NCBI GenBank assembly: GCA_031404615.1
Contig: JANNHX010000021.1
Span: 1-45,031 of the forward strand
Reading direction: 5' to 3'
DNA: 45,031 nucleotides
From: Chloroflexota bacterium
Lineage (GTDB): Bacteria > Chloroflexota > Limnocylindria > Limnocylindrales > CSP1-4
The notes beneath the pieces were generated by a model, which saw nothing but the letters and a program-made list of their open reading frames with translations, did not search any database and was not told the DNA's origin. Of this stretch, positions 15,055-34,706 are shown piece after piece; the stretch's first letter is position 1; each line of letters opens with the position of its first letter. The translations under genes and the position numbers were made by a program.

Positions 15055-15384
15055 ATGACCGACATCTCTCCTGACGCCCAGCCTGTGGACGCCGCGTTCG
15101 ACGCGCAGCGCCGTGCGACCGAGCTCGCGATCCTGGACGCGCTGCGTGCCGTCGTGGACCCCGAGATCGGAATGAACGTGGTGGAGCTCGCCCTGATCCG
15201 TCAGGTCCTGCTGGGCCCGGACGCGACCGAGATCAAGATGATCCTGACCACGCCGTTCTGCCCCTACGCCGGCGCGATGATCGCCCAGGTGAAGGAGCAG
15301 GCCGAGACGGTGGTCGATCACCCGGTCAAGGTCACCCTGCTGGCGGAGCGCTGGGACCCGCGCGACGCCGGCCTGATGTGGTGA
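15055..15384 (+). CDS. DUF59/MIP18-family Fe-S assembly protein (SufT/PaaD-like)
   Basis: ILDALRAVVDPEIGMNVVELALI...TTPFCPYAGAM is the canonical DUF59 motif with the conserved Cys. Confidence 0.8.
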   Translation: MTDISPDAQPVDAAFDAQRRATELAILDALRAVVDPEIGMNVVELALIRQVLLGPDATEIKMILTTPFCPYAGAMIAQVKEQAETVVDHPVKVTLLAERWDPRDAGLMW

Positions 15385-15421: not shown

Positions 15422-16096
15422 ATGAGCGATCCCCGCATCGACTACGACTCCGCCGTGGCGACCGGTCGTGGCGACGACGGCACGACCGCGCTGCTGTTCG
15501 GCGGCGACCGCGTGAAGAAGGACGACCTCAGGACCGAGGCATATGGCGCCGTGGACGAGGCCGTCGCGGCCCTGGGCCTCGCACGCGCCGAGCTGTCCGT
15601 GAAGGCGGCCGACGGGTCGATCACCCCGCGGCTTGCGCGCCTCAACGAGCTGGTGCTGCGGATCCAGCGCGAGCTGTTCGTCGTCGGCGCGGAGCTGGCG
15701 ACCAACCCGGAGGCCCGCGACAAGGCCCGCGACGACGTGACCCGCGTCTCCGGGCGCATGGTCGATGGCATGGACGAGATGCTCCGCGAGGTGGAGGCGC
15801 AGATCGTCCTCCCGCAGGAGTTCGTCGTCCCGGGCGAGACGCGGCTCTCCGCTGGCCTGGAGATGGGTCGTACCGTGCTCCGGCGCGCGGAGCGCCGTGC
15901 CGTTACCCTTTCCTACCACGACGAGGGGTTGGCCGGAAGCCGGCTCCTCCCCTACCTGAACAGACTGGCCGACCTGCTGTGGGTCCTGGCGCGAGCCGCC
16001 GAGCAGGCCGAAGCCCATGCGGCAACCGTCGCCCGGCCCGAGCGCACGCGGGGCCTGCGCACCGGGACGGCGAAACCGGAAAGGAGCAACGAATGA
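15422..16096 (+). CDS. PduO-type ATP:cob(I)alamin adenosyltransferase
   Basis: GRGDDGTTALLFGGDRVKKDDLRTEAYGAVDE, RIQRELFVVGAELAT, FVVPGE, RTVLRRAERR and YLNRLADLLWVLAR match the PduO/MMAB family. Confidence 0.85.
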   Translation: MSDPRIDYDSAVATGRGDDGTTALLFGGDRVKKDDLRTEAYGAVDEAVAALGLARAELSVKAADGSITPRLARLNELVLRIQRELFVVGAELATNPEARDKARDDVTRVSGRMVDGMDEMLREVEAQIVLPQEFVVPGETRLSAGLEMGRTVLRRAERRAVTLSYHDEGLAGSRLLPYLNRLADLLWVLARAAEQAEAHAATVARPERTRGLRTGTAKPERSNE

Positions 16097-16806
16097 GCGG
16101 CACTCCCTACACGCCCGCACAGCTGGGCGTCCGCCCGGCGCCGGAGCTGGTCCAGAAGCTCCTGATCGGGGCGTTCGGCTGGATGTTCGCGGGTCTCCTG
16201 CTGTCCGCGGGCGTCGCCTACCTCGTCGGGTCCAGCACCCAGCTGTTGGCGTACGTCAGGAGTTTCTTTCTCCTGATCATCATCGCCCAGCTCGTCCTGG
16301 GCATCGGGATCCAGGTCCTGGTCAACAAGGTCTCGCCGACCATCTCGCTGATGCTCTTCTTCGTCTACGCGGCGTCGATGGGCCTCACGATCGGCGCGAT
16401 CGTCTGGTCCGTCATGCAGCAGGCCGGCGGCGCGCAGGCGGTCGCGTCCGCGTTCCTCTCGGCGGCCGGAATGTTCGCCGGGGCCGCGTTCTACGGCGCC
16501 GTCACCAAGCGTGACCTGACGAAGATGGGCGGCATCCTCGTGATGCTGATGATCGGGTTGTTCATCGCCATGGTGATCAACATCTTCCTGGCCTCGAGCG
16601 CATTCTCGTGGGTCATCTCGATCGTGGGCGTGCTCATCTTCACCGGGCTCACCGCCTGGGACGTCCAGAAGATCACCAACGGCACCTATGCCGCCTGGAC
16701 CGGCTCCATGGAGCGCGCCTCGATCATCGCGGCGCTCCACCTGTACCTGAACTTCATCAACCTGTTCCTGTTCATGCTCCGCATCTTCGGCGGCAGCCGG
16801 AACTAG
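16093..16806 (+). CDS. Bax-inhibitor-1/YccA-family membrane protein
   Basis: Seven hydrophobic segments. Family motifs FLSAAGMFAGAAFYGAVTKRDLTKMGGIL and IAALHLYLNFINLFLFMLRIFG. ATG at 16093 overlaps the previous TGA (ATGA) and is preceded by AAGGAG. GC content is visibly lower than in neighbouring genes. Confidence 0.85.
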   Translation: MSGTPYTPAQLGVRPAPELVQKLLIGAFGWMFAGLLLSAGVAYLVGSSTQLLAYVRSFFLLIIIAQLVLGIGIQVLVNKVSPTISLMLFFVYAASMGLTIGAIVWSVMQQAGGAQAVASAFLSAAGMFAGAAFYGAVTKRDLTKMGGILVMLMIGLFIAMVINIFLASSAFSWVISIVGVLIFTGLTAWDVQKITNGTYAAWTGSMERASIIAALHLYLNFINLFLFMLRIFGGSRN

Positions 16807-17300: not shown

Positions 17301-20300
17301 CTACCGGGAGCCCAGCACGACGCGGCCGACCGGCGTCGCGACCAGCAGCGCCTCCATGGCCAGGTCCGGGAGCGGCCGCGCGAACCAGAAGCCCTGCCCC
17401 CGGTCGCAGGCCAGGTCGCGCAGGGACGCGAGCTGGGTCGCGGTCTCGATCCCCTCGGCCACCACGTCGATCCCCAGCCCGTGCGCAAGCGCGATCACCG
17501 CCTGGACGATCGGCCCGTCGGCGGGGTCGGCACCGCCCAGCCCGGACACGAAGGAGCGGTCGATCTTGATGGTGTCGAGCGGCAGCCGCCGCAGGTAGGC
17601 GAGCGACGAGTACCCCGTCCCGAAGTCGTCCAGCACGAGCTTCACGCCCAGCGCACGCAGGCCGCGCAGCCGCTCGATGCTCGCCTCGGACTGGTCCATG
17701 ACCACGCTCTCCGTGATCTCGAGCTCGAGGCAGCCGGGCGCGAGGCCCACGTGGTCCAGGATCCCGGCCACGTTGGCGATGAGCGACGACTCGGCGAACT
17801 GCCGCGCCGAGAGGTTGACGCTGACCGCCAGGTTGGCCGCGGCCGGCAGCCGGCGCTGCCAGTCGCGCAGCTGTTGGCAGGCGGTCTCGAGGACCCATCG
17901 CCCGATCGGCAGGATGAGGCCCGTCTCCTCGGCCAGCGGAATGAACGAGAGCGGCGGGATGAGGCCGCGCGTCGGGTGTTCCCAGCGCAGCAGGGCCTCC
18001 ATGCCCAGGACCTCGCCGGTGACCAGGCCGACCAGCGGCTGGTAGTGCAGCCGGAGCTCGGAACGCTCGACCGCCCGCCGCAGGTCGTGCTCGAGCGTGA
18101 CCCGGTCCAGCGTCTGGGCGTGCATCTCCGGATCGAACAGGATGACCTTGCGGATGGGGTCGGCCTTCGCCCGGTGGAGCGCGATCTCCGCCTGCTTGAG
18201 CAGGTCGAACGGATGCGCCAGGGTTGCCGAGCCGATGGCGATGCCCATGCTCGCGCCGACGCTGACCTCGTTGCCCTCGAGGTCGAAGGTGCCGGCGAGC
18301 GAGGCCTCGATCCGCGCCGCGACCCGCTCAGCCTCGCGGACGCTCCGCACGGGCCCGAGCAGGATTCCGAACTCGTCGGAGCCGAGACGCGCCACGGTAT
18401 CGGTGGACCGGGCGGCCGTGAGCAGGCGCTCGCCCACCTGAGTCAGGAGCAGGTCGCCGGCCCTGTGCCCCAGGCTCTCGTTGACGACCTTGAACCGGTC
18501 GAGGTCCAGCAGGATCAACGCGACGCGGCTCTGGGTCGCGCCCCGCCGACCCAGCTCACGGGCCGCGCCCTCCATCTGCTCGGCGAGGCAGTTGAGGAGC
18601 ATCGTCCGGTTGGGCAGCCCGGTGAGCGTGTCGTGCAGCGCGGCATGGGCCCGGCTCCGCACCTCGGTCTGGGCGCGCTCGAAGAGCCTGGCGTTGTCGA
18701 TGGCGATCGATGCGAGCTGCCCGAACCGCACGAGCGCCTCCACCTCACGCTCGGAGAATGGGCGGGTGGCGTCGCCCGACGAGAGGCCGATCAGCCCCAG
18801 CACCTCGTCGCCCGAGGTGAGCGGCACCGCGCAAATGGCGCCGAACAGGTCGGCCGGGAGGTCCGGCGCACGGGCCGGGTACTCGGCGTAGTCGTCGACC
18901 ACGACCGGCCTCCCGCTGCGCACGACGGCCCAGCCCATGCCCGTGCCGTGCGGGAGCCGATAGCCGTCGTAGCCCTCGAAGTTGCCTATGCCGACGCGGG
19001 CCACGAGGTCCAGCTCGCCGCTGCCGGCTCCTGGACCCTCGGGTCCCTCCAGCAGGTACAGGAACCCGTTCTTGACGCCGACGAGGCCCGCCGCGCGCTC
19101 GACGATCTCGGCGAGCAGCTCCCGGGGCTCCAGGCGATCGAGCAGCTTGAGCGTCGTCTGGTCGACGGCGGCGAGATAGAGGTCGCGCGTCGGATCGTCG
19201 GTGGGCTGGCGTGACCGGCTCGGTGGCTTGGCGAGGTACAGCGCCCGGTCGGCGTGGGCGACGAGCTCGTCCTTTCCCTGCGCGTCCTCCGGATAGTGCG
19301 CGATGCCGACGCTCACCGTCACCTGCGGCCCGAAGGTCCGGGTCAGCCGCGCGACCGCGGACCGGACCCGCTCCGCGACCTTGCGAGCGCCCGGGCCGTC
19401 CGCGCTGGGCAGGAGGATCGAGAACTCGTCGCCGCCGTACCGGTAGACGCGGTCCTCGTCGCGGAGCGACTCCCGCATCGCGTCTGCGATCCGGCGCAGG
19501 AGCGCGTCGCCGGCGGGGTGCCCGTGGGCGTCGTTGTAGCCCTTGAACGCGTCAAGGTCGAGCATGAGCAGGGCGAAGGCGACGCCGCCCTCGATGAGCT
19601 CGTCGAGCTGCTTCTGGAACGCGCCGTGGTTGCGCAGGCCGGTGAGGGCGTCGTGCTCGGCCAGGAGCACGACCGCACCGTGGGCCTCCGCGTTGCGCAG
19701 GGCGATGGAGGCCTGGCCCGCGAACAGCTGGACGAGCTCGAACTCGTCGCGCGAGAAGTGCGACTCCGCGCCGCCCATGCGCGCCATGTTGAGCGTGCCG
19801 ATCACCTCGCCGCCTCCGAGCAGCGGGCACACGATCATCGACTCCGACTCCTCGGGCGTGCCGGGGATCTGCACCGACCGTGGATCGAGGTGCGCGTCGT
19901 TGGCGAGCACGGCCTCCCCGTTGCGGATCGCCCAGCCGGTGATGCCAGCGTCCAGGGGGCTCTCGTGCGACAGGATCAGCTCCGCGAAGCGGTCGCGCGA
20001 GACCACGGCCCGCCGGACGCAGGCGCTCCGGTCCACCCGGTAGATCGTCAGCGAGTCGTAGGCCATCAGGGCCTTGAGGGAGTCCGCGATCATCTCCAGG
20101 ACGCCGCGCGGGTCCAGCGTGGACAGCAGCCGCTCGTTGACCTCGAGAAGCCGGCGCTGGCTCTCGAGCCGGTGGTGCAGCTCCTGCTGCTGGCGGCGCA
20201 CCTGACCGAACGCCTCCGCGTTGACGAGCGCCTGAGCGGCGTACCCTGCGAAGATCTCCAGGGTCCGCTGGTCGTCCTCGGTGTACTGGTCGTAGCCCGC

Positions 20301-21311
20301 CTTGGACAGGACGATGATGCCCAGGACGCGCGACTCGTAGGACATTGGGACCAGGAGCATCGACTCCGGCCCGCTGCTCTTGCCGATCTTGCGGCCGCGC
20401 GGGTCGGCCATCGCGTCACCGATGCGGATCGTCGTGTTGTGGAGCGCGACCCAGCCGGTCAGGCCCTCGCCGATCTGCAGTCGCAGGCTCTCCATCGACG
20501 GCGTGCCAATGCCCGTGAACTCGCCCTGGAACGCGATGGGGTCGCAGGTCTGGGTGACGTGGTCGACGCGGTAGACGCGGATCGTGTCGTGCCCGATGAG
20601 CTTGTCCGCCTCGGCGACGATCGCCTCACCGATGCCCTCCATCTCCTGGATGCGGTTGAGGCGCGCCGAGAGGTCCTGGATCGCCCGCAGGCGCGCGGCG
20701 CCCTCGCGGACCGAGTTGAACAGCCGGGCGTTCGCGACCGCGATCGCCATCTGGTTGGCGAAGGTGGTGCACAGGTCCAGCTCGTCGGGCGTCCAGTCGT
20801 ACGGCGTCCGGTGGTAGAGGACGAGCAGGCCCAGCGCCTCGTCGCAGACGACGAGTGGGACGAAGTTGACGACCCGGTAGCCCTCGCGGGCATTGATGTC
20901 GGCGAAGTCGTGCATGGTGTCCGGCCGGTCCAGGACGATGCTCCGGCGCTCGTTGACCGCGCGCAGGCCCAGTGTCGGATCGTCGCGGGTCGTCGCCTCG
21001 ACGGCCGCGATCATGTCGGCTGGCAGGTCCTGGTGGGCGGCGAGCTTGAGGGGATGGCGCCCGGGGGCCAGGAGCCACAGCGCCGCCGCGTCCGAGCCGA
21101 ACAGCGTTCGCGACGAGTCGAGGACGTCGCGGAAGACCTCGTCGAGCTCCAGGCTGGTGCTGATCTCGGCGACCACGCGACGCAGGGCGACGGCGCGCGC
21201 CGTCTCCGCGCCCATGACGCGCGAAGGCACCTCCAGGGGCGTGCGCTCCTGGCGGGAGGGGGTCGGCGCCCGAGAGCGCCGGGCCTTGCTGCTGTCGTGC
21301 GCGAGCGTCAT
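17301..21311 (-). CDS. Multidomain cyclic-di-GMP signalling protein: GAF x3, GGDEF, GAF, GGDEF, EAL
   Basis: 1336-aa ORF. First GGDEF domain has an intact RYGGDEF with RDED (RxxD) five residues upstream. Second GGDEF has LGSDEF with RSTD upstream. EAL domain has [43 protein letters not shown] and QGFWFARP. Four GAF-like segments precede or separate them. Confidence 0.9.
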
Positions 21312-24320: not shown

Positions 24321-25054
24321 ACCCGCGTCGTCTCACCCGCAGCCGCGACCGGCAGCTCGCCGGCGTCGCCGGCGGCATGGCCGAGTACCTGGACATCGAC
24401 CCGACGGTCATCCGGATCCTGTGGATCATCGTCATCCTCGCGTCCGGGGGCCTCGCCCTGCTGGCATACCTCATCCTCGCGCTCGTCATGCCGCAGGCGT
24501 CGTACGCCGCGGCGCCGGGCGGCTGGGCACCGACGGCCAGCGGCGCCGCCGCCGGCTCCACGGCCTGGGGCACGCCTCCGGCCGCACCCGCTCCGATCGG
24601 CGGCTGGGATGCCGGCGCCACTGCGCCGCCGCAGGTCCAGCCGCGCGCCGAGCGTCGCGGCATCGGCGCCGCCGCCATCGTGGGTGTCGTGCTGATCGTG
24701 TTCGGCGCCATCGCACTCGCGGACGCGGCGCTGCCCGGCTGGGTCGCCGGCGCCATCATGGGACCGGCGGTCATCCTCGCCCTTGGCGCGGCCCTCCTCG
24801 CGTCGTCGCTCCGGCGGCGCTCCGACGAGGCTGCACCGGCTGCGACACCCGCAGTCGCTCCGGCACCGGCTCCCGCTCCCGCCTGGGCTCCCACGCCGGC
24901 TCCCGCGTACACACCGGCCCCCACGCCGGACACGATGGCCACGGCGGCCCCGTGGGACGCGACGGACACGCAGTCGGTCGGCTCTGAGGACTTCGCACAG
25001 GCCCCCGGTGCCGTGTCGGACCAGGCCGCCGACGGTGGATCGCGTCCGGCCTGA
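24317..25054 (+). CDS. PspC-domain membrane protein
   Basis: LTRSRDRQLAGVAGGMAEYLDIDPTVIRILWIIVILASGGLALLAYLILALVMP is the PspC domain. Followed by Pro/Ala-rich low complexity and further TM segments. GTGA overlap with the upstream gene. Confidence 0.8.
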   Translation: MNPRRLTRSRDRQLAGVAGGMAEYLDIDPTVIRILWIIVILASGGLALLAYLILALVMPQASYAAAPGGWAPTASGAAAGSTAWGTPPAAPAPIGGWDAGATAPPQVQPRAERRGIGAAAIVGVVLIVFGAIALADAALPGWVAGAIMGPAVILALGAALLASSLRRRSDEAAPAATPAVAPAPAPAPAWAPTPAPAYTPAPTPDTMATAAPWDATDTQSVGSEDFAQAPGAVSDQAADGGSRPA

Positions 25055-25100
25055 TCACCCCCGCCACCCGTGCAATCGCGCTCTTCGGCTCCTCGGTCGC

Positions 25101-25126
25101 CGGCTCCCCGCCGGGCCGGGGAGCCG
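25101..25126 (+). terminator. Stem-loop downstream of the PspC gene
   Basis: Perfect 10-bp stem CGGCTCCCCG / CGGGGAGCCG with a 6-nt loop, 47 nt after the stop, followed by CTTC. Confidence 0.45.
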
Positions 25127-25218
25127 CTTCATGCCCGGGGTCGGTCCCCCCGCGCACAGCTGGCTGCGCCAGGGGCGCCCACCGCGAGGCCACCTTGTCT
25201 CGGGGTGATCGCACCCAC

Positions 25219-25338
25219 CTACGCCTGGACATGGTGCAAGACACCGTCGCTGAGCCAACACGTCTCACCTACGCGCCCGGGTGGTCGGTGATGGGAATTC
25301 GGCCGGTCCGCCGTGTCGACCACCATGTCCAGGCGTAG
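25219..25338. repeat. Perfect 18-bp inverted repeat flanking an 84-nt spacer in a non-coding region
   Basis: ctacgcctggacatggtg (25219-25236) and caccatgtccaggcgtag (25321-25338). Confidence 0.85.
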
Positions 25339-25539
25339 ACGAGGCTCGACGTCCTGCCCGTGGCGGCCCACGATGTGACCGACCGCCCGGCGGGACGCTC
25401 CGCCGGCGACAGTGTCGAGGGTCCGACGTCCCGCTCGCTGCCGCCCCGCGCTGCGAGCGCCCGTGACGGCAGACCGACCGTCGGGCCGCCCCTCACGGCG
25501 GACCGCCCAACAGCCGCGTCACTGACCGCCAACCCCTCG

Positions 25540-25569
25540 TTGACGCGATCCGCGGAAGGGGTCTAGACT
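25540..25569 (+). promoter_or_regulatory. Candidate promoter of the Rrf2-suf operon
   Basis: TTGACG (25540-25545), an 18-nt spacer, then TAGACT (25564-25569), in the only AT-richer patch of a roughly 690-nt intergenic region. Confidence 0.35.
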
Positions 25570-25744
25570 CAATCCCTAGGAAACAGGTCGGAATTCCCCG
25601 GCGGCCTCTGAGGCCGTACGGCGACCCCTCGGGGAACTCCGGACCGCCTCCGAACCGCTCATCCGCGAGGACCAGACCCTGACGCAACGCGCGAGCTTCC
25701 ACGGATCCGGCGCCGTCGCCTTCTCCACGAAGGGCGAGTACGGC

Positions 25745-26233
25745 GTGCGCCTGATGGTGCAGCTCGGGCGTCGCTACGGGGAAGGACCAGCCAGCCTGGC
25801 GGAGATCGCCCTCGACGAGGACCTGCCGCGCGCCTACCTGGAGCAGCTCGTGACGAGCCTCCGGGATGCGGGGCTGGTCACCTCCACCCGTGGCGCCCGC
25901 GGCGGCTACGAGCTCGTCGCACACCCCGCCCAGATCCGGATGAGCGACGTCCTCCGCGCCCTGGAGGGCCCCATCGCGCCGATGATCTGCGCCTCGGACG
26001 ACCCGGACCACGCCAACTGCTGCGACCGCTCAACGCAGTGCACGGTGAACGTGCTCTGGATCCGCGTCCGGGATGCCATCACCGGCACGCTCGAAGGCAT
26101 GACCCTCGCGGACCTCGTCCCGGTCCGCCACATCACCCTCGACCCGCGTGCGCCGGCCTCGTCCCGGGCCGGCGCCGCGGCCGGGGACCTCGACCCTGCG
26201 CCAAGCGCAACGCTCACAGGAGCCACTTCGTGA
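25745..26233 (+). CDS. Rrf2-family transcriptional regulator (IscR/SufR-like role inferred from context)
   Basis: wHTH (SLAEIALDEDLPRAYLEQLVTSLRDAGLVTSTRGARGGYEL) and a Cys cluster (CASDDPDHANCCDRSTQC). The Rrf2-like sequence FSTKGEYG continues in frame upstream of GTG 25745, so the true start is probably earlier (see finding). Confidence 0.8.
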   Translation: MRLMVQLGRRYGEGPASLAEIALDEDLPRAYLEQLVTSLRDAGLVTSTRGARGGYELVAHPAQIRMSDVLRALEGPIAPMICASDDPDHANCCDRSTQCTVNVLWIRVRDAITGTLEGMTLADLVPVRHITLDPRAPASSRAGAAAGDLDPAPSATLTGATS

Positions 26234-27111
26234 CCGACGCCAACGACCGGGAGCTGATCATCCGCGACCTGCGCGTCGCGCCGGCCGCAAAGCCTGAGCT
26301 CGAGATCCTCAAGGGGATCAACCTCACGATCCGCAAGGGCGAGGTCCACGCGATCATGGGCCCCAACGGGTCCGGCAAGACGACGCTCGCCTATGCGCTG
26401 GCGGGCCACCCGGCCTACAGGATCCTCGGCGGCGAGGTCACCTGGAAGGGCTACGACCTGCTCAAGCTTTCGGCCGACAAGCGGGCGCGCCTGGGCCTGT
26501 TTCTGGCGTTCCAGTACCCGACCGCGGTCCCCGGCCTGTCGGTCGCCTCGTTCGTGCGCTCGGCGCTCAACGCGAAGCTCCAGGGCATCGACAAGAACCC
26601 CGACATCGACCCCACGGACGCCATCAAGGGCGGCGTGTCAATGCTCGACTTCCGCAAGCGGATGCGCGCCAAGATGGCGCTGCTCAAGATGGACGACGGG
26701 TTCGCGGCCCGCTACGTCAACGACGGCTTCTCGGGCGGCGAGAAGAAGCGCCTCGAGATGCTCCAGATGGCGATGCTGGAGCCGGAGTTCGCGATCCTCG
26801 ACGAGACGGACTCGGGCCTCGACATCGACGCGCTGCGCATCGTGGCCGAGGGCGTCAACGCCCAGCTCAACCCGGACATGGGCGTCCTGCTGATCACGCA
26901 CTACCAGCGGCTGCTCAACTACATCACGCCGGACGTGGTCCACGTCCTCGCCGAGGGGCGCATCGTGACCTCGGGCGGCAAGGACCTCGCACTGCGCCTC
27001 GAGGACGAGGGCTACGGCCCGATCCTCCGCGAGAACGGCCTCGACATCGGCGTCCCCGACGAGGCCCTCGTGCTGCCCAAGGAGCCCGAGACGGCCACCG
27101 CCGGCCGGTAG
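26230..27111 (+). CDS. sufC: Fe-S cluster assembly ATPase SufC
   Basis: Walker A GPNGSGKTT, FLAFQYP, ABC signature FSGGEKKR, Walker B AILDETDSGLD, H-loop ITHY. GTG overlaps the Rrf2 stop (GTGA). Confidence 0.9.
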   Translation: MTDANDRELIIRDLRVAPAAKPELEILKGINLTIRKGEVHAIMGPNGSGKTTLAYALAGHPAYRILGGEVTWKGYDLLKLSADKRARLGLFLAFQYPTAVPGLSVASFVRSALNAKLQGIDKNPDIDPTDAIKGGVSMLDFRKRMRAKMALLKMDDGFAARYVNDGFSGGEKKRLEMLQMAMLEPEFAILDETDSGLDIDALRIVAEGVNAQLNPDMGVLLITHYQRLLNYITPDVVHVLAEGRIVTSGGKDLALRLEDEGYGPILRENGLDIGVPDEALVLPKEPETATAGR

Positions 27112-27123
27112 GAGCGAACGACA

Positions 27124-28392
27124 ATGACCACCGAGACGCGCCCGGTCGCCACGGCGCCGCTCGACCCGGCCGCCCTGCGGGCTGACTTCCCGATCCTCGA
27201 CCAGGACGTCTTCGGGCACCGGCTGGTCTACCTTGACTCAGCGGCGACCTCGCAGAAGCCCACCGCGGTCATCGAGGCGATGGACGCCTACTACCGACGC
27301 GACAACGCGAACGTCCACCGCGGCATCTACCAGCTGTCCGAGCGCGCCACGGCCGCGTACGAGGGTTCGCGCGCAAAGGTCGCCCGGCTGATCGGCGCGC
27401 CGGATCCGCGGACGATCATCTGGACCCGCAACGCCACCGAAGCGATCAACCTCGTGGCGTACTCGTGGGGCCGCCGCCACATCGAGCGCGGCGACGCGAT
27501 CATCCTGACCGAGATGGAGCACCACGCGAACCTGGTTCCGTGGCAGATCCTGGCCCAGGAGAAGGACGAGGACCTGGAGTTCATCCCCATCACGGACGAC
27601 GGGATCCTGCGCCAGGACGTGTTCGACGTCCTGCTCCGCCTCAGGCCCAAGCTGGTCGCGTTCACCCACGTGTCAAACACGCTGGGGACGATCAACCCGG
27701 TCGAGGAGATGACCCGCAAGGCCCACGAGGCCGGTGCGCTCGTCCTCATCGACGGCGCCCAGGCCGTGCCGCACCTCCCCGTGGACGTCGAGGCGATCGG
27801 CTGCGACTTCTACGTCTTCTCCGGCCACAAGGCGCTCGGGCCCACGGGCTCCGGCGTGCTCTGGGGCAGGCGCGAGCTGCTCGAGGCCATGCCCCCGTTC
27901 ATGGGCGGCGGCGACATGATCCGCGAGGTCCACCTGCGCCGATCCGAGTGGAACGAGCTGCCCTGGAAGTTCGAGGCCGGCACCCCGGACATCTCGGCGC
28001 AGATCGGGCTCGGCGTCGCCGCGGACTACCTCATGGCTCTGGGCATGGACCGGCTGCGCGCGCACGAGCGCGAGCTCGTCGCGTACGCGCTGGACATGCT
28101 CCCGCGCGAGGTCCCGGGGATCGAGCTGTACGGCCCGGCGGACCCGGACCTGCGCGGTGGCGTGGTCCCGTTCAACATCCCGAGCGTCCATCCGCACGAC
28201 GTGGCCCAGGTCCTGGACCGGTACGGCGTCGCGGTCCGCGCGGGCCATCACTGCACGATGCCGCTCCACGAGCGCCTGGACCTCGCCGCCACGGCGCGCG
28301 CGTCGTTCCAGTGCTACACGACCACCGAGGACATCGACGCGCTGGCGGCCGCGCTCAAGGAGGTCCAGCACCTCTTCGGCACGGGCTCCTGA
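27124..28392 (+). CDS. sufS: Cysteine desulfurase SufS (class V aminotransferase, group II)
   Basis: YLDSAATSQKP, NANVHRG, EHHANLVPWQ, SGHKALGPTGSGVL (PLP lysine), RAGHHCTMPL (catalytic Cys). Confidence 0.9.
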   Translation: MTTETRPVATAPLDPAALRADFPILDQDVFGHRLVYLDSAATSQKPTAVIEAMDAYYRRDNANVHRGIYQLSERATAAYEGSRAKVARLIGAPDPRTIIWTRNATEAINLVAYSWGRRHIERGDAIILTEMEHHANLVPWQILAQEKDEDLEFIPITDDGILRQDVFDVLLRLRPKLVAFTHVSNTLGTINPVEEMTRKAHEAGALVLIDGAQAVPHLPVDVEAIGCDFYVFSGHKALGPTGSGVLWGRRELLEAMPPFMGGGDMIREVHLRRSEWNELPWKFEAGTPDISAQIGLGVAADYLMALGMDRLRAHERELVAYALDMLPREVPGIELYGPADPDLRGGVVPFNIPSVHPHDVAQVLDRYGVAVRAGHHCTMPLHERLDLAATARASFQCYTTTEDIDALAAALKEVQHLFGTGS

Positions 28393-28420
28393 CCGGCCGG
28401 ACGCTACACTCCGGGGACCG

Positions 28421-28816
28421 ATGGACGACCTGTACCGCGACTACATCCTGGAGCACTACCGGCGGCCCCACAACTTCGGGGTCCTTGAGGCTCCCTCCGC
28501 CTCGTTCGAGGGCGCCAACCCGCTGTGCGGAGACCGCATCACGATGCAGCTCACCGTTGCCGACGGCGTCGTGACCGAGGTGGGCTTCACCGGCCGCGGC
28601 TGCGCGATCAGCCAGGCCTCCGCCTCCCTGCTGACGGACGAGATCAAGGGCAAGCCCGTGGGGGACGTGGCCGGGTTCGCGGCGACGGACCTCCTGGAGC
28701 TGCTCGGGATCGAGATCAGCCCGGCGCGCCTCAAGTGCGCCATGCTCTCGTTCGACTCGCTCCAGCACCTCCTCGATGAGACCGGCATCAAGCCGTTCGC
28801 GAAGGAGACGACCTAG
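28421..28816 (+). CDS. sufU: SufU/IscU-type sulfur-transfer/scaffold protein
   Basis: LYRDYILEHYRRPHNFG, NPLCGD, GRGCAISQASASL, ARLKCAML: the three conserved Cys of SufU. Confidence 0.85.
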   Translation: MDDLYRDYILEHYRRPHNFGVLEAPSASFEGANPLCGDRITMQLTVADGVVTEVGFTGRGCAISQASASLLTDEIKGKPVGDVAGFAATDLLELLGIEISPARLKCAMLSFDSLQHLLDETGIKPFAKETT

Positions 28817-28865
28817 CCGCCCCGCCGTTCGACGGCGGCCCGTCGTCCCACCGGAGCCCCTCGCC

Positions 28866-30062
28866 ATGCCCAAGACCTATGCCGAGCTCCTCCGCGAGGC
28901 GCGGAGCGAGATCCGCGAGCTCACCCCGGCGGAGGCCGATACGCTGCGCCAGCGCGGCGGCATCGCCCTCGTCGACGTCCGTGAGGCGTCCGAGTGGGAC
29001 CAGGGCCACGTGCCAGGCGCCCGCCACATCTCCAAGAGCTACGTCGAGCAGGAGATCGAGGCCGCCGTCCCGGACCGCTCGACCCCCGTCGTCCTGTACT
29101 GCGCCGGCGGCATCCGCTCGCTGTTCGCCGCCCAGACGCTGCGCGGCATGGGCTACGAGGACGTCGCCTCGATGAGCGGCGGGTTCCAGGCCTGGAAGAG
29201 CCAGGGCTTCGAGTGGACACAGCCCGTCCGCCTGACGGATACCCAGAAGCAGCGCTACAGCCGCCACCTGCTGATCCCCGAGGTGGGGTCGGCGGGGCAG
29301 GCGAAGCTGCTCTCGTCCAAGGTGCTGCTCATCGGCGCCGGTGGCCTCGGCTCGCCGGCGGCGCTGTACCTGGCCGCGGCTGGTGTCGGCACCATCGGCA
29401 TCATCGACTTCGACGTCGTCGACCTCTCCAACCTCCAGCGCCAGGTTCTCCACACGAACGACCGCGTCGGCGAGAAGAAGGTCGAGTCCGCGCGCAGGAC
29501 CATCACGGCCCTCAACCCCGACGTCACGGTGCTGGGGCACGACGAGATGCTCGTCGCGGACAACGTCGAGCGGATCATCACGGGCTACGACGCGATCGTG
29601 GACGGGACCGACACGTTCGAGACCCGCTACATCCTCAACGACGCGGCGGTCGTGGCCGGCATCCCGGTTGTCCACGCGTCCGTGTTCCGGTTCGAGGGAC
29701 AGGTCACGACCTTCCTCCCGTGCGTGGGTCCCTGCTACCGCTGCCTGTACCCGACGCCGCCCCCGCCCGAGCTCGCGCCCGGCTGCTCCGTCGCCGGTGT
29801 GCTGGGCGTCGTGCCCGGGATCATGGGCCTCCTCCAGGCGAACGAGGTGCTCAAGGTCCTGCTTGGGATCGGCACGACGCTCGCCGGCCGCCTGTTGCTG
29901 TTCGATGCATTGGAGACCGAGTTCACCGAGCTCCGGCTCCGCCGCGATCCCGCCTGCCCGGTCTGCTCCGATGCGGCCGTCGCCGCGCGGGAGGCCGGCA
30001 CCCCGCTCCCCATCCCGTCCACCGCTCCCGGCGGGGTGTTCACGCTCGGAGGATCCCGATGA
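28866..30062 (+). CDS. Rhodanese (N-terminal) fused to a ThiF/MoeB-type E1-like adenylyltransferase
   Basis: Rhodanese region: DVREASEWDQGHVPGARHI and active-site loop YCAGGIRS. E1 region: RYSRHLLIPEVG, LLIGAGGLGSPAALYLAAAGVG, DFDVVDLSNLQRQ, CYRC...CPVC zinc motif, loop Cys in PGCSVAGVLG. Confidence 0.85.
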   Translation: MPKTYAELLREARSEIRELTPAEADTLRQRGGIALVDVREASEWDQGHVPGARHISKSYVEQEIEAAVPDRSTPVVLYCAGGIRSLFAAQTLRGMGYEDVASMSGGFQAWKSQGFEWTQPVRLTDTQKQRYSRHLLIPEVGSAGQAKLLSSKVLLIGAGGLGSPAALYLAAAGVGTIGIIDFDVVDLSNLQRQVLHTNDRVGEKKVESARRTITALNPDVTVLGHDEMLVADNVERIITGYDAIVDGTDTFETRYILNDAAVVAGIPVVHASVFRFEGQVTTFLPCVGPCYRCLYPTPPPPELAPGCSVAGVLGVVPGIMGLLQANEVLKVLLGIGTTLAGRLLLFDALETEFTELRLRRDPACPVCSDAAVAAREAGTPLPIPSTAPGGVFTLGGSR

Positions 30063-30103
30063 GCACGGTCAAGGTCCCCGCGGTCCTGCGCGGGGCCGGG
30101 TGA
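30059..30103 (+). CDS. 14-codon ORF MSTVKVPAVLRGAG (CysO/MoaD/ThiS-like N-terminus only)
   Basis: Its ATG overlaps the E1 stop (ATGA), and its TGA overlaps a GTG in the JAMM frame (GTGA). The sequence resembles the first beta-strand of sulfur-carrier proteins (CysO begins MNVTVSIPTILRPHTGG, as recalled). There is no room for the remaining roughly 80 residues. Translation and function are unknown. Confidence 0.3.
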   Translation: MSTVKVPAVLRGAG

Positions 30104-30107
30104 CGGA

Positions 30108-30161
30108 GGCGGGGATGCCCGTCCAGGCGGGGATGCCCGTCCAGGCGGCGATGCCCGCCCG
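30108..30161 (+). repeat. 18-bp tandem repeat x3 at the 5' end of the JAMM gene
   Basis: ggcggggatgcccgtcca / ggcggggatgcccgtcca / ggcggcgatgcccgcccg. Each unit contains an in-frame ATG (MPVQAG-MPVQAA-MPAR). Confidence 0.9.
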
Positions 30162-30612
30162 AGGGCCAGCAGCGCCCAAGGTGGGAGACCATCCCGGTCC
30201 GGCCCTGGTTTCACTGCCCGGCGCGATCGCGGAGGCGATCGAGGCCCAGGCGCGAGCCGAGTACCCGCTCGAGGCCTGCGGGCTGATCGCCGGATCCGCG
30301 CCGGCGGCGTCCGGCGGCGTGGCGCTGCGCTACGTGGCCTGTCGGAATGCGGCCGCATCGCCGGTGCGCTACTCGGTCCACCCCGACGACCTCTACCGGG
30401 TCACCGTCGAGACCGACGACGCCGACGAGGTCATCTGGGGCATCGTCCACTCCCACGTGCGGTCGCCGGCCGTGCCGTCGCTGACCGATGTCGGGCTGGC
30501 GCTGTACCCGGACGCCCTCTACCTGCTCATCTCGCTCGCGGACGCGACGGCCCTCCGCGCGTGGCGGATCGTCGGCGGTGAGATGCACGAGGTTGGGCTG
30601 GAGCTCGCATGA
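30115..30612 (+). CDS. JAMM/MPN+ metallopeptidase (Mec/Mov34-like)
   Basis: EACG glutamate block and HSHVRSPAVPSLTD, an exact H-x-H-x7-S-x2-D JAMM motif. GGAGG lies 5 nt upstream of ATG 30115. Alternative starts are GTG 30100 or later repeat ATGs. Confidence 0.8.
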   Translation: MPVQAGMPVQAAMPARGPAAPKVGDHPGPALVSLPGAIAEAIEAQARAEYPLEACGLIAGSAPAASGGVALRYVACRNAAASPVRYSVHPDDLYRVTVETDDADEVIWGIVHSHVRSPAVPSLTDVGLALYPDALYLLISLADATALRAWRIVGGEMHEVGLELA

Positions 30613-31031
30613 ACAACGGGATGGATCGAGGCAGGCTCGCGTGGCTGCTCGCGGGCGGGCTGGCGCTCGTCGGCGGAACGCTCCTCGGGTGGAACGGGGA
30701 GCTGCTCGACGCCATCGCCCACCCGCCGCCCCTCGTCCGCTCGGCGCTGGTCGGGCTGAGCGTGGTGGCTGCGCTGTGGTGCGTCCTCCAGGCCGTCAAA
30801 CGCCTCGAGGCCGGTCGACACATCGACGCCGAGTCGATGACCGGGCGCGACCTCGCCACCCTCGTGCGCGGCGTGCGCTACGTCTTCCTCGCCGTCGCGG
30901 CACTGTCGGCCGCCGCCGGCTGGCTCATCGGCCACCCGCTGCCGTTCATCGTCGCGCTCGTCATCGCCGGCGTCGACATCCTCGAGACCACGTTCCTGCT
31001 CCTGGTCGTGGCGATGCGCCGCGAGGACTGA
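30609..31031 (+). CDS. Small integral membrane protein (about 4 TM), function unknown
   Basis: The ATG overlaps the JAMM stop (ATGA). Four hydrophobic segments (LAWLLAGGLALVGGTLLGW, ALVGLSVVAALWCVL, VFLAVAALSAAAGWLIG, FIVALVIAGVDILETTFLLLVVA). Confidence 0.6.
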   Translation: MNNGMDRGRLAWLLAGGLALVGGTLLGWNGELLDAIAHPPPLVRSALVGLSVVAALWCVLQAVKRLEAGRHIDAESMTGRDLATLVRGVRYVFLAVAALSAAAGWLIGHPLPFIVALVIAGVDILETTFLLLVVAMRRED

Positions 31032-31158
31032 GGGGCCTCCGGCGTCTCGGTGTCCAGCCCGCTGCCCGCGCCGCCCGCCGCCCGCCCCGCCTTGATGGAA
31101 CCGGTTCCACAAGGCACGGGATCGGTGTAGGCTAGGGGCGACCGCTTTGGAGGCTTCC

Positions 31159-33549
31159 ATGACCACGTCCGACCTCGCGTCTGCCCCCGCCGCGTCGAGC
31201 GGCCCCCTGTCCCCCGACGAGCTGCGCCTCATCGACGCCTACTGGCGCGCGGCGAACTACCTCTCCGTCGGCCAGATCTACCTGCTCGACAACCCGCTGC
31301 TCAAGGAACCCCTCAAGCCCGAGCACGTCAAGCCGCGCCTGCTGGGCCACTGGGGCACGACCCCTGGCCTGAACATGATCTACGCGCACATGAACCGCGT
31401 GATCCGGAATTGGGACCTCGACGCGATCTACGTGATCGGACCCGGCCACGGCGGCCCGGCGATCGTCGCCAACGCGTACCTCGAGGGGACCTACAGCGAG
31501 GTCTACCCGAGCATCACGCGCGACGAGGATGGCATCCGCAAGCTGTTCCGCCAGTTCTCGTTCCCCGGCGGGATCCCGAGTCACGTGGCCCCCGAGACGC
31601 CGGGCTCGATCCACGAGGGCGGAGAGCTGGGCTACGCGCTCTCGCACGCGTACGGCGCGGCGTTCGACAATCCCGACCTGGTGGTCTGCGCGGTCGTCGG
31701 CGACGGCGAGGCCGAGACCGGCCCGCTGGCCACGAGCTGGCACTCCAACAAGTTCCTCAACCCGGTCACGGACGGCGCGGTGCTGCCGATCCTCCACCTG
31801 AACGGCTACAAGATCGCCAACCCCACGATCCTCGCCCGGATCCCCAAGGAAGAGCTGGCGGCGCTGATGGAGGGCTACGGCCACAAGCCCTACTTCGTGG
31901 AGGGGGACGACCCCGCGGAGGTCCACCAGCAGCTGGCGGCAACGCTCGATGCCGTGGTCCAGGAGATCCACGCGATCCAGAAGGCCGCCCGCGAGGGCGG
32001 GGTGACCGAGCGTCCCGCGTGGCCGATGATCGTGCTCCGTACGCCGAAGGGCTGGACGGGGCCGAAGACGATCGACGGCCACCAGGTGGAAGGCGCCTGG
32101 CGTTCGCACCAGGTTCCCATGAGCGAAGTCCGCAAGAATGCGGACAACCGGGCGATCCTCGATGACTGGATGCGCAGCTACCGGCCCGAGGAGCTGTTCG
32201 ACGAGCACGGGGCGCTGGTCCCGGAGCTCGCCGCGTTGCCGCCGAAGGCCTACCGGCGCATGAGCGCGAACCCGGTCGCGAACGGCGGGGAGCTGCTCCG
32301 CGACCTCGTCCTCCCGGACTTCCGCAACTACGCCGTCGCCGTGCCCCGGCCCGGGGCCACCACGTCCGAGGCGGCCCGGGTCCTCGGCACGTTTGTGCGG
32401 GACGTCATGGACCGCAACCGCGAGAACTTCCGCATGTTCGGCCCGGACGAGACCGCCTCGAACCGCCTCGGCGCGGTGCTGGACGTCACGGACAGGACCT
32501 GGATGGCGGAGATCATCCCGGGCGACGACCACCTCGCCCGGGACGGCCGCGTCATGGAGGTCCTCTCCGAGCACCAGTGCCAGGGCTGGCTGGAGGGCTA
32601 CCTGCTCACCGGCCGACACGGCGTGTTCAACTGCTACGAAGCCTTCATCCACATCATCGACTCGATGTTCAACCAGCACGCGAAGTGGCTGAAGGTCACC
32701 GGTGACATCCCGTGGCGGCGCCCGATCGCATCGCTCAACTACGTGCTCTCGTCCCTCGTCTGGCGGCAGGACCACAACGGCTTCTCCCACCAGGACCCGG
32801 GCTTCATCGACCACGTGGTGAACAAGAAGGCCGACGTCATCCGCGTCTACCTGCCGCCGGATGCCAACACGCTGCTCTCCGTGGGCGACCACTGCCTGCG
32901 CAGCCGGCACTACGTCAACGTGATCGTCGCCGGCAAGCAGCCCAGCCCCAACTGGCTGACGATGGACCAGGCGATCCTCCACTGCACCCGCGGCATTGGG
33001 ATCTGGGACTGGGCCAGCAACGACCAGGGCGGTGAGCCCGACGTCGTCATCGGCAGCGCCGGCGACGTCCCGACGCTCGAGGCGCTCGCCGCGGTCGACC
33101 TGCTCCGCCAACACCTGCCGGAGCTCAAGGTGCGCTTTGTGAACGTCGTCGACCTGATGCGGCTCCAGGACGAGAAGGAGCACCCGCACGGCCTGTCCAA
33201 CGCGGAGTTCGACTCGCTGTTCACCACGAGCAAGCCGGTCGTCTTCGCCTACCACGGCTACCCGTGGCTGATCCACCGCCTCACGTACCGCCGGACGAAT
33301 CACGTCAACATCCACGTCCGCGGCTACAAGGAGGAGGGCACCACCACGACGCCGTTCGACATGGTGATGCTCAACGACCTCGACCGATTCCACCTCGTCA
33401 TCGACGTGATCGATCGGGTGCCGGGCCTCGGCCCCAGGGCCGGCCACGTCCGCCAGCTGATGGTGGACAAGCGCATCGAGGCGCGGGCCTACACGAGGCT
33501 CGAGGGCGAGGATGCCCCCGAGATCGCGAACTGGGCATGGCCGCACTAG
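31159..33549 (+). CDS. xfp: Xylulose-5-phosphate/fructose-6-phosphate phosphoketolase
   Basis: [66 protein letters not shown] are hallmark XFP motifs. GGAGG lies 5 nt upstream of ATG 31159. Confidence 0.95.
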
Positions 33550-34706
33550 GGGACGACACGTCGGCTGACGGCCACGTCACGGGCAGAGGGCCGCGCCGGA
33601 TCCTTGTCGTCAACGCGGGATCCAGCAGCCTGAAGCTGCGGCTGCTGGACCCCACCGACGTCGTCGTCGCGTCCGCGGATCTGCCGGCGGTCCGCGGGGC
33701 GACGGACGCCCGCCTGGTCGCCGAGGCGGTGGCGGCCTGGGGCGGCGAGACGATCGACGCCGTCGGCCATCGCGTGGTCCACGGCGGCACGGTGTTCACG
33801 CACCCCGTGCTCGTGGACAAGCGGGTCCTCGCGCAGATCGCCGCGCTCACCGACCTTGCGCCACTCCACCAGCCGAAGTCGCTGGCCGCGCTGGAGGCCG
33901 TCGGGGCCGTGCTGCCGAACGTGCCGGCGGTCGCCTGCTTCGATACCGCGTTCCATGCGACGCTGCCCACGGCCGCCTCGACCTACGCCCTGCCATCGGA
34001 GTGGCGCCAGCGCTGGGACCTGCGCCGGTACGGATTCCACGGGCTCTCGCACTCCTATGTGTCACGCCGCGCCGCGCTCCTCTGCGCCCGTGAGGGTGAC
34101 GCGACCTTCCGCGTCGTCACGTGCCACCTGGGCGCCGGGGCGTCGCTCGCGGCGGTGCTCGGCGGGCGCTCCGTCGACACGACCATGGGGTTCACGCCGC
34201 TGGAGGGCCTGGTCATGGCCACGCGCTCGGGCACGGTGGATCCCGGCCTGGTGCTGTGGCTGGCCGAGCACGTGGGGATGCCGCCGGCAGAGCTGGCGGC
34301 GACCCTCGAGCACCGTTCCGGGCTGCTTGGCCTTGCCGGGACGGCGGACATGCGCGCGGTCCTCGACGGGGCGCAGGCCGGCGAGCCCGGCGCGCGCCTC
34401 GGCCTCGAGGTCTACCTGCACCGGCTGCGGGGCGCCATCGCGACGATGACGGCGGCGATGGGCGGGCTGGACGCGATCGCGTTCACCGGCGGTGTCGGCG
34501 AGCGTGCCCCCGTCGTGCGCGCGCTGGCCGCCGACGGCCTCGGCTACCTGGGGATCGCGCTGGACGCGAAGGCGAACGGCCGGCCCGGGACGGCCGACCG
34601 GGAGATCGGCGTGCCGGGCGCCGCGGTCCGTGCGTTCGTGATCCCGGCCCGCGAGGACGTGGAGATCGCGCGCGACGTCAGGCGAACCATCGCTACGACG
34701 GCCTAG
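33537..34706 (+). CDS. ackA: Acetate kinase
   Basis: [75 protein letters not shown]. The ATG overlaps the last 13 nt of xfp. Confidence 0.9.

Follow-up and report, generated by a model that had tools for sequence, protein, structure and literature searches.

The 45,031-bp window analyzed here, the whole of metagenomic contig JANNHX010000021.1 from a Chloroflexota bacterium (~72% G+C), contains eight head-to-tail + strand reading frames between positions 25679 and 31031. They encode an Rrf2-family regulator (rrf2), the SUF-type proteins SufC, SufS and SufU, an E1-like protein with rhodanese and ThiF domains (rhdThiF), a product of 14 codons (the mini-ORF, for open reading frame), a JAMM peptidase and a membrane protein with four hydrophobic segments (4-TM, for transmembrane). 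Our best explanation is that this string is probably a compact, two-unit regulon of the Limnocylindria type from which cysO and cysM, the genes for a sulfur carrier and a cysteine synthase, have been deleted, while the other genes are maintained and the E1-like enzyme, the JAMM peptidase and the 4-TM protein have another job.

Two gene units and the loss of cysO and cysM

We surveyed the window and 84 related loci, from ~80 species, by tblastn with nine proteins. The homologues of the E1-like protein were labelled Chloroflexi or Candidatus Limnocylindrales, and all 80 genome loci found via SufC were likewise from Chloroflexi or Limnocylindrales, bar a few (Thermomicrobiales, Dormiibacterota and one 'delta proteobacterium'). 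Since the window itself belongs to the Chloroflexota (Limnocylindria group), the actinobacterial and Firmicute suf operons that the initial annotation had used as a yardstick are the wrong background. The commonest gene order among the relatives was rrf2-sufC-sufS-(insert)-sufU-rhdThiF-cysO-cysM-JAMM-4TM, which we read as two neighboring units, rrf2-sufC-sufS and sufU-rhdThiF-cysO-cysM-JAMM-4TM. The gap between sufS and sufU measured 24 to 38 nt in 19 loci, including the window, and 0.45 to 8.4 kb in 42 loci, and the inserts were heterogeneous and unrelated (FAD oxidoreductases, an ABC importer, an alcohol dehydrogenase, a LuxR-hydrolase and a cyclase). The gap between sufU and the E1 gene was shorter than 310 nt in 52 of 60 loci and 567 to 1030 nt in the other 8, including loci in which sufS was far away. 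Although the string had been described as a single operon under one regulator, this description is limited to the compact form seen in the window, because most relatives have a separate promoter for the sufU-E1-JAMM unit and unrelated genes between it and sufS. We considered the ABC transporter between sufS and sufU as a sulfate or thiosulfate importer and rejected this idea; its best models were of aminoethylphosphonate, polyamine and iron type, all below cutoff, and the inserts vary by lineage.

The content of the second unit was clearest in locus L001, whose E1-like protein is 86% identical to that of the window. There, sufU and rhdThiF are followed by a gene for a 92-amino-acid (aa) ThiS-fold protein, a 331-aa PALP gene, the JAMM gene and a small membrane-protein gene. 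The relatives' ThiS-like protein passed a SAMP1/MoaD-type model (61 vs 60 bits), their PALP protein scored 333 bits on cysKM, just under the cutoff of 344, and many close relatives of the latter carry the JGI name '[CysO sulfur-carrier protein]-thiocarboxylate-dependent cysteine synthase'. On these matches, the second unit of the relatives is the predicted CysO-CysM-Mec protein-thiocarboxylate route to cysteine, with its MoeZ-type activating enzyme encoded inside the cluster (PMC3227635). Rhodanese-ThiF and JAMM genes do recur with sufCSU in the relatives, usually with cysO-cysM between them. The combination had been considered an undescribed operon type; the set of E1, CysO, CysM and JAMM has already been described in Mycobacterium tuberculosis (PMC3227635).

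A blastn alignment of the window with L001 lost colinearity at 30092 and regained it at 30234. Across this break, ~1.27 kb of L001 is reduced to 141 bp in the window, which has lost cysM entirely, cysO for the most part and the JAMM gene over its first 44 nt. Window positions 30041 to 30092 align with the start of cysO (thiS) in L004 and L001, and the mini-ORF product MSTVKVPAVLR resembles the relatives' cysO starts LSTVKFPAVLR and LSIVKVPAVLR. The full mini-ORF, MSTVKVPAVLR-GAG-stop, corresponds to the first 11 cysO codons joined to the last cysO codons, the alignment being weaker in the stop region. Given the break in colinearity and the alignment to the cysO start, the mini-ORF, which the initial annotation had treated as a component gene, is to be read as a stump of the deleted cysO and not as a gene in its own right. 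The start of the JAMM frame, VTEA, resembles the relatives' cysM start (VTHAAG in L001; VTEAAGLHA, fused to JAMM, in L003), and the first cysM codons appear, on a weaker alignment, to have been fused to JAMM. In the window, overlapping stop and start codons still form an unbroken chain after the deletion. The window has no full gene for a ThiS/MoaD-fold carrier ending in Gly-Gly, with no candidate other than the 14-codon stump, and no CysM-type pyridoxal phosphate (PLP) cysteine synthase, the latter being deleted relative to L001.

The same loss has occurred repeatedly. Both sufU and JAMM are carried by 48 loci, including the window; in 35 of these cysO-cysM lies between the E1 and JAMM genes, and 13 lack both. 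On a neighbor-joining (NJ) tree of SufC+SufS, all basal clades had cysO-cysM and the losses were scattered over seven groups (window+L003, L005+L008, L012+L016+L019, L018/L015, L024, L033 and L049), which by our reading suggests at least five and possibly seven events on a tree without support values. The nearest outgroups of window+L003, namely L004 and L001, still have cysO. Scars differ by lineage: the cysO start forms a separate ORF in the window, a cysO tail (GGAG-stop) is fused to E1 in L003 and L005, the E1 tail is shortened in L012 and L016, and no recognizable remnant is left in L002, L019 and L033.

We calculated dN/dS, the ratio of nonsynonymous to synonymous substitution rates, by the Nei-Gojobori method for pairs within the deletion lineages. 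Between the window and L003, its sister genome, the ratio was 0.13 for E1, 0.16 for JAMM, 0.11 for 4-TM, 0.08 for SufU and 0.13 for SufC; between L005 and L008 it was 0.16, 0.27 and 0.23 for E1, JAMM and 4-TM, and between L012 and L016 it was 0.11, 0.09 and 0.18 for the same three genes. Pairs that retain cysO-cysM fell in the same range. Catalytic motifs were intact in the translations, including the JAMM motif E...HSH-x7-S-x2-D (present as HSHVRSPAVPSLTD), the rhodanese loop CAGGIRS and CxxC pairs of the E1-like protein, and the GHHC active-site motif of SufS, in which the PLP-lysine motif SGHK was also present. Together, the intact motifs and the purifying selection indicate that the remaining genes are maintained and are not decaying.

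Missing sufB and sufD and the closest known systems

A tblastn search of the window with E. coli SufB and SufD found neither protein (best E=0.89), while the positive controls in that search, E. coli SufC and SufS, gave 4e-77 and 2e-125; Pfam scans of the window's other called ORFs found no SUFBD domain. In the 84 related loci, no sufB or sufD was found within 10 kb of sufC (tblastn, E<=1e-5). The absence of both genes from the window, as first annotated, was thus borne out and extends to the surroundings of sufC in ~80 species. SufC functions within SufBC2D and the usual neighbor of sufC is sufB, which makes the split between sufC and sufBD unusual. Given the equivalog-level match of SufC, the strong purifying selection on it and its role in SufBC2D, we assume that sufB and sufD are located elsewhere in the genome, and we regard this as very likely. 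The lone DUF59 gene noted at 15055 is present, although its position is 15085-15384; this DUF59/FeS_assembly_P (SufT-like) gene has a cobalamin adenosyltransferase gene as its neighbor and is 10 kb away from the suf genes.

Several known systems resemble parts of this locus. The CysO-CysM-Mec and MoeZR proteins of M. tuberculosis (Rv1334-1336 plus Rv3206c) share four parts with the window's relatives, a rhodanese-E1, a GG-ending ThiS/MoaD-type carrier, a CysM-type PLP enzyme and a JAMM peptidase, of which the window keeps the E1 and JAMM. Whereas the rhodanese domain is C-terminal in MoeZR, it is N-terminal here (NF006444 architecture), and unlike in M. tuberculosis the E1 gene stands inside the cluster, with sufU before it, a clade-specific 4-TM gene after it and an Rrf2/IscR-like regulator. 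The Gram-positive and actinobacterial SUF operons (sufCDSUB; sufRBDCSUT) likewise encode SufC, a type II SufS and a SufU-type acceptor together; here, however, sufB and sufD are missing from the 10 kb around sufC, the only DUF59 gene is 10 kb away, SufU lacks an insertion of ~20 residues and belongs to the E1 unit, and the regulator is Rrf2 rather than SufR.

The type-1 autoregulation of iscR in E. coli and Pseudomonas is similar in that an Rrf2 regulator is the first gene and promoter elements are overlapped by a 25-bp palindrome whose core is YYGAC-N7-GTCRR; by our own count, the relatives' palindromes are 72-76% identical to the consensus, compared with 68-76% for P. aeruginosa sites (PMC3899308). 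In contrast to the iscR systems, the genes under the predicted control here are of suf and cysO type rather than isc, and the window site matches at 14 of 25 positions. HcyS/HcyF/HcyD of Wolinella, TtuB/TtuC/TtuD of Thermus and the archaeal SAMP/UbaA/JAMM1 system also combine an E1-like enzyme, a ThiS-like carrier and JAMM modules. In these systems the sulfur comes from a cysteine desulfurase and a rhodanese; the downstream enzymes are different ones (MetY, TtuA), and we know of no description of any of the three systems with sufC, sufS and sufU in the same regulon.

Promoters, leader and anatomy of the gene string

The -35 and -10 hexamers before rrf2 were near-invariant in 22 and 36 aligned relatives, and the palindrome that follows the -10 box was kept in all 36. 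Identity to the E. coli IscR type-1 consensus ATASYYGACTRWWWYAGTCRRSTAT (PMC3899308) was, by our own count, 18-19 of 25 positions in the relatives and 14 of 25 in the window, where the left half-site is degenerate. Loci with an insert have a separate promoter for sufU, at which the palindrome AATCCCGAC-N7-GTCGGGATT overlaps a -35-like TTGGAC or TTAGAC, with TAGACT or TACACT downstream of it, 10-14 nt before the ATG. Because the same conserved palindrome stands at the rrf2 and sufU promoters, predicted IscR-like control of both units is well supported, and this control is probably autoregulatory. The Rrf2 protein has four cysteines (C-x10-CC-x5-C) and scored below the cutoffs of the IscR and CymR equivalogs; the spacing of the cysteines in IscR differs from this pattern. 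The Fe-S-sensing regulator that had been proposed is plausible from the cysteine cluster and the IscR-type-1-like palindrome.

A conserved, predicted RNA hairpin occupies the rrf2 leader (Table 1). Minimum free energy folds agree across variants, and both stems show compensatory double changes. In a trimmed alignment, 92% of cells were paired, compared with 49-69% when the partner was slid by one column, and the covariation was matched by 0 of 500 shuffles; on the raw MAFFT alignment, RNAalifold arrived at another fold with weak support, and there was no match to an Rfam family. An alternative offered by RNAalifold pairs the CGGGG of the stem's 3' half with CCCUG, a stretch that includes the CUG start; such a pairing could act as a switch that sequesters the start codon.

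That start is itself unusual. The candidate CTG at 25679 lies 7 nt after GAGGA (25667-25671), which resembles a Shine-Dalgarno motif, and the first canonical start is the GTG at 25745. The in-frame peptide upstream of this GTG, LTQRASFHGSGAVAFSTKGEYG, is conserved at the protein level across ~80 loci, where the synonymous changes include TCC/AGC serine. Most loci have no ATG, GTG or TTG in this stretch, the CTG is near-invariant (TTG in L029 and L049), and indels 5' of it are not multiples of three. Judged from this pattern of conservation, rrf2 almost certainly begins at the non-canonical CTG 25679.

Table 1. Features of the gene string and its upstream region, with positions in the window; gene identities are from Pfam and NCBIfam profile searches, with bit scores set against the curated cutoffs
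Feature	Position	Strand	Details
Promoter-like site	25540..25569	+	-35 TTGACG 25540-25545, 18-nt spacer, -10 TAGACT 25564-25569; only sigma-70-like site in 25000-31400
25-bp palindrome, putative operator	25571..25595		Directly after -10 box; window form AATCCCTAGGAAACAGGTCGGAATT; majority form AATCCCGAC-GAAATCG-GTCGGAATT
Predicted RNA hairpin, ~43 nt, rrf2 5' leader	25594..25636	+	Outer stem UUCCCCGG/UCGGGGAA around inner stem-loop
Rrf2-family (IscR-like) regulator	25679..26233	+	Pfam Rrf2, 5e-33
SufC ATPase	26230..27111	+	TIGR01978, 315 bits vs cutoff 213
SufS cysteine desulfurase (type II)	27124..28392	+	TIGR01979, 577 bits vs 475
Short SufU-type protein, 131 aa	28421..28816	+	TIGR01994, 107 bits vs 92.5
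E1-like adenylyltransferase, N-terminal rhodanese + ThiF	28866..30062	+	Pfam Rhodanese + ThiF; NF006444, 551 bits vs 449
14-codon ORF, cysO relic	30059..30103	+	MSTVKVPAVLRGAG; first 11 cysO codons + stop region
JAMM/Mec-like metallopeptidase (Prok-JAB)	30100..30612	+	Prok-JAB, 1e-18; GTG 30100 start
18-bp tandem repeat, 2.8 copies	30107..30157	+	In frame (GMPVQA), 96% matches; inside scar and JAMM N-terminal extension
Small membrane protein, 140 aa	30609..31031	+	Four hydrophobic segments by eye; ATGA overlap with JAMM

The profile searches agree with the gene identities first proposed, and the coordinates agree with eight tightly joined ORFs. Four junctions are 4-nt overlaps (rrf2/sufC GTGA, thiF/mini-ORF ATGA, mini-ORF/JAMM GTGA and JAMM/4TM ATGA), and the other three intergenic gaps measure 12, 28 and 49 nt. 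SufC and SufS are 51% and 48% identical to their E. coli counterparts. The closest solved structures to SufU are T. thermophilus 2QQ4 and B. subtilis SufU, and it is in these structures that the ~20 missing residues form the insertion separating SufU from IscU. From our reading of the sequence, SufU-like Cys/Asp/Cys/Cys positions are kept, with Lys instead of His before the last Cys; the length of 131 aa recurs in 4 of 4 relatives with called genes (L001-L004). The rhodanese-ThiF protein is predicted to be MoeZ-like in function. JAMM has an alternative start at GTG 30181. The 4-TM protein has no Pfam or NCBIfam match; its 1092 homologues are all 'hypothetical', Limnocylindrales is the sole organism name given, and its gene stands after JAMM in most of the loci surveyed.

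Some further observations concern the E1 gene and its relatives. The C-terminal tail of E1 after the last CxxC is conserved as GTPLP..GVFTLG(G/A)xR in the window (29990-30062) and relatives, although some deletion lineages have a shorter tail or a different one in its place. We also considered the tail GVFTLGGSR as a mimic of the Gly-Gly end of a carrier; this was not robust, as many relatives end in GAAR, GSAR or otherwise. The E1 frame runs into cysO in L023 (~15630-16100), an apparent read-through fusion, and P0088 is a 547-aa protein with ThiF, rhodanese and JAMM domains; these fusions may be natural or may be artefacts of assembly or gene calling. In L002 (790-2597), a long-read metagenome-assembled genome (MAG), SufC and SufS gave only partial matches (166 and 359 residues), reflecting either real decay of the first unit or frameshift errors of assembly.

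No terminator-like site was found in 25000-31400. The 4-TM gene and a phosphoketolase gene are 115 nt apart, and the gap contains a near-perfect inverted repeat, CCTTGATGGAACCGGTTCCACAAGG (~31090-31114), which could serve as a terminator lacking a U-tract or as a site for a regulator. The phosphoketolase (XFP) and acetate kinase genes directly downstream (31159-34706) overlap by 13 nt, and the same pair lies downstream in L001. On the - strand, 17301-21311 encodes a 1336-aa signalling protein with four GAF domains, a GGDEF and an EAL domain, which is syntenic in L004.

Sulfur flow and alternative explanations

In relatives with an intact second unit, E1 would adenylate CysO at the C-terminal glycine and use its own rhodanese domain to deliver sulfur, forming CysO-COSH; CysM would then condense CysO-COSH with O-phosphoserine to a CysO-cysteine adduct, from which the JAMM peptidase would free cysteine. 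The persulfide on the rhodanese domain would be loaded from cysteine by SufS via the short SufU, and the constant adjacency of sufU and the E1 gene argues for such loading. The initial annotation had suggested thiocarboxylate chemistry, with cysteine synthesis among the options, and the CysO (ThiS) and CysM genes that relatives carry between ThiF and JAMM fit that suggestion. Its proposal that the locus runs a sulfur relay fared less well: with neither the sulfur carrier nor the cysteine synthase encoded in the window, the locus cannot run the relay by itself. Unless the link is purely regulatory, the window's E1 and JAMM must have other carriers as substrates. We propose that E1, JAMM and the membrane protein would have a job independent of neighboring cysO and cysM, most likely activating and processing ThiS/MoaD-type carriers encoded elsewhere, and that SufC would find its SufB and SufD partners in genes elsewhere in the genome. 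The stump ORF may persist since it would pass terminating ribosomes from thiF to JAMM, keeping JAMM and 4-TM translationally coupled to the E1 gene. Sulfur could flow from cysteine to a thiocarboxylate, or from a thiocarboxylate to cysteine and on to SufS.

Several points weigh against this explanation. Loading by SufS-SufU is doubtful because, where cysO-cysM is present, the sulfur of cysteine would be used to make cysteine, a circular flow; gene adjacency is what suggests that SufS and SufU may feed the rhodanese domain. There is no ThiS/MoaD gene in the window, so that the alternative carrier substrates are unseen, and the placement of sufB and sufD elsewhere is an assumption. It is also possible that cysO-cysM moved within the deletion genomes rather than being lost; no relocated cysM of a deletion-type MAG was among the best 120 CysM homologues (to ~83% identity), which is weak evidence. 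The NJ tree leaves the exact number of independent losses uncertain for want of support values, and many of the relatives are long-read MAGs with possible frameshift errors.

Two alternatives differ in whether sulfur passes between the units at all. It could be that the units are only co-regulated, with the cysteine supply from CysO/CysM balanced against consumption by SufS under oxidative or Fe-S stress, no transfer of sulfur from Suf proteins to E1, and SufU serving Fe-S assembly only. The shared palindrome at both promoters, the physical separation of the units by unrelated genes in 42 of 65 loci and the avoidance of a circular cysteine-to-cysteine flow all favor this account; however, it accounts neither for the linkage of sufU to the E1 gene instead of to sufS and sufC nor for the retention of E1 and JAMM in lineages that lost cysO-cysM, and we rate it as possible but below an even chance. 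Conversely, the main purpose of the string could be a dedicated relay that takes sulfur from cysteine through SufS, SufU and rhodanese-E1 to a thiocarboxylate, serving a thio-cofactor or the thiolation of tRNA, with the mini-ORF as a real component. This idea, which overlaps our best explanation, draws on the position of sufU beside the E1 gene in relatives with both, even kilobases from sufS, on cysteine desulfurases as donors to rhodanese-E1 enzymes (PMC3227635), and on the purifying selection on E1, JAMM and sufU after cysO-cysM loss. Yet no carrier protein is encoded in the window, where the mini-ORF reads as a deletion stump, the ancestral downstream enzyme is a cysteine synthase, which would make the relay circular there, and Pfam scans of the called ORFs found no gene for tRNA thiolation, thiamin or the molybdenum cofactor in the window; we consider the relay as main purpose somewhat unlikely. 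A bolder variant, in which the short SufU is a dedicated persulfide shuttle from SufS to the E1 rhodanese domain and SufC works without a SufB/SufD scaffold, for example as the ATPase partner of a SufS-SufU-E1 relay, strikes us as quite unlikely.

The remaining alternatives fare worse. E1 and JAMM might perform ubiquitin-like conjugation and deconjugation, as in archaeal SAMPylation or the TtuB system of Thermus, instead of or besides sulfur transfer: the relatives' carrier passes the SAMP1 model, the sole NCBIfam match of JAMM is 'desampylase', and E1 scores 328 bits on a SAMP-activating E1 model. Both of the latter scores are under the curated cutoffs, though (64 vs 130 for JAMM; 328 vs 450 for E1), the window has no gene for a ubiquitin-like protein, and the conserved partner in the relatives is a cysteine synthase, so this is very unlikely. 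The absence of the pathway core and the unstable tandem repeat in the scar could suggest that E1, JAMM and 4-TM are functionless leftovers in decay, but the intact frames and catalytic motifs, the retained stop/start overlaps and dN/dS of 0.09-0.27 in three separate deletion lineages, as in intact lineages, largely refute this and leave it scarcely credible. Finally, the window is a whole 45-kb metagenomic contig and an exact search for its SufS in public assemblies came up empty, as might be expected of an assembly join or mis-assembly; this is refuted by the same gene order in dozens of independent MAGs, including short-read assemblies, by the deletion form in independent assemblies from other samples and assemblers (L003, L005, L008, L012, L016 and others), and by the flanking synteny of the window with L002 and L004.

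What looked like a new operon type thus resolves into known parts plus real peculiarities. The combination of sufC-sufS without sufBD, a short SufU tied to an E1 whose rhodanese domain is N-terminal, control of the IscR type, a membrane protein specific to the clade and recurrent cysO-cysM loss that preserves coupling is not described in the literature we searched. A whole Chloroflexota class retains sufC-sufS without nearby sufB or sufD. For annotation, rrf2 needs its CTG start, and the mini-ORF is not to be called a gene. The repeated loss of a pathway core, with coupling preserved and a stump ORF left behind, offers an example of the origin and possible persistence of a mini-ORF. In M. tuberculosis, the sulfur donor of the CysO pathway is still unknown, and a cysteine desulfurase has been proposed as donor to the rhodanese domain (PMC3227635). 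The linkage of sufU to rhodanese-E1 and to CysO/CysM/Mec provides a concrete, testable donor candidate in SufS-SufU, and a SufU shuttle, if true, would give a genomic answer to the question of the sulfur source of CysO/MoaD-type thiocarboxylates.

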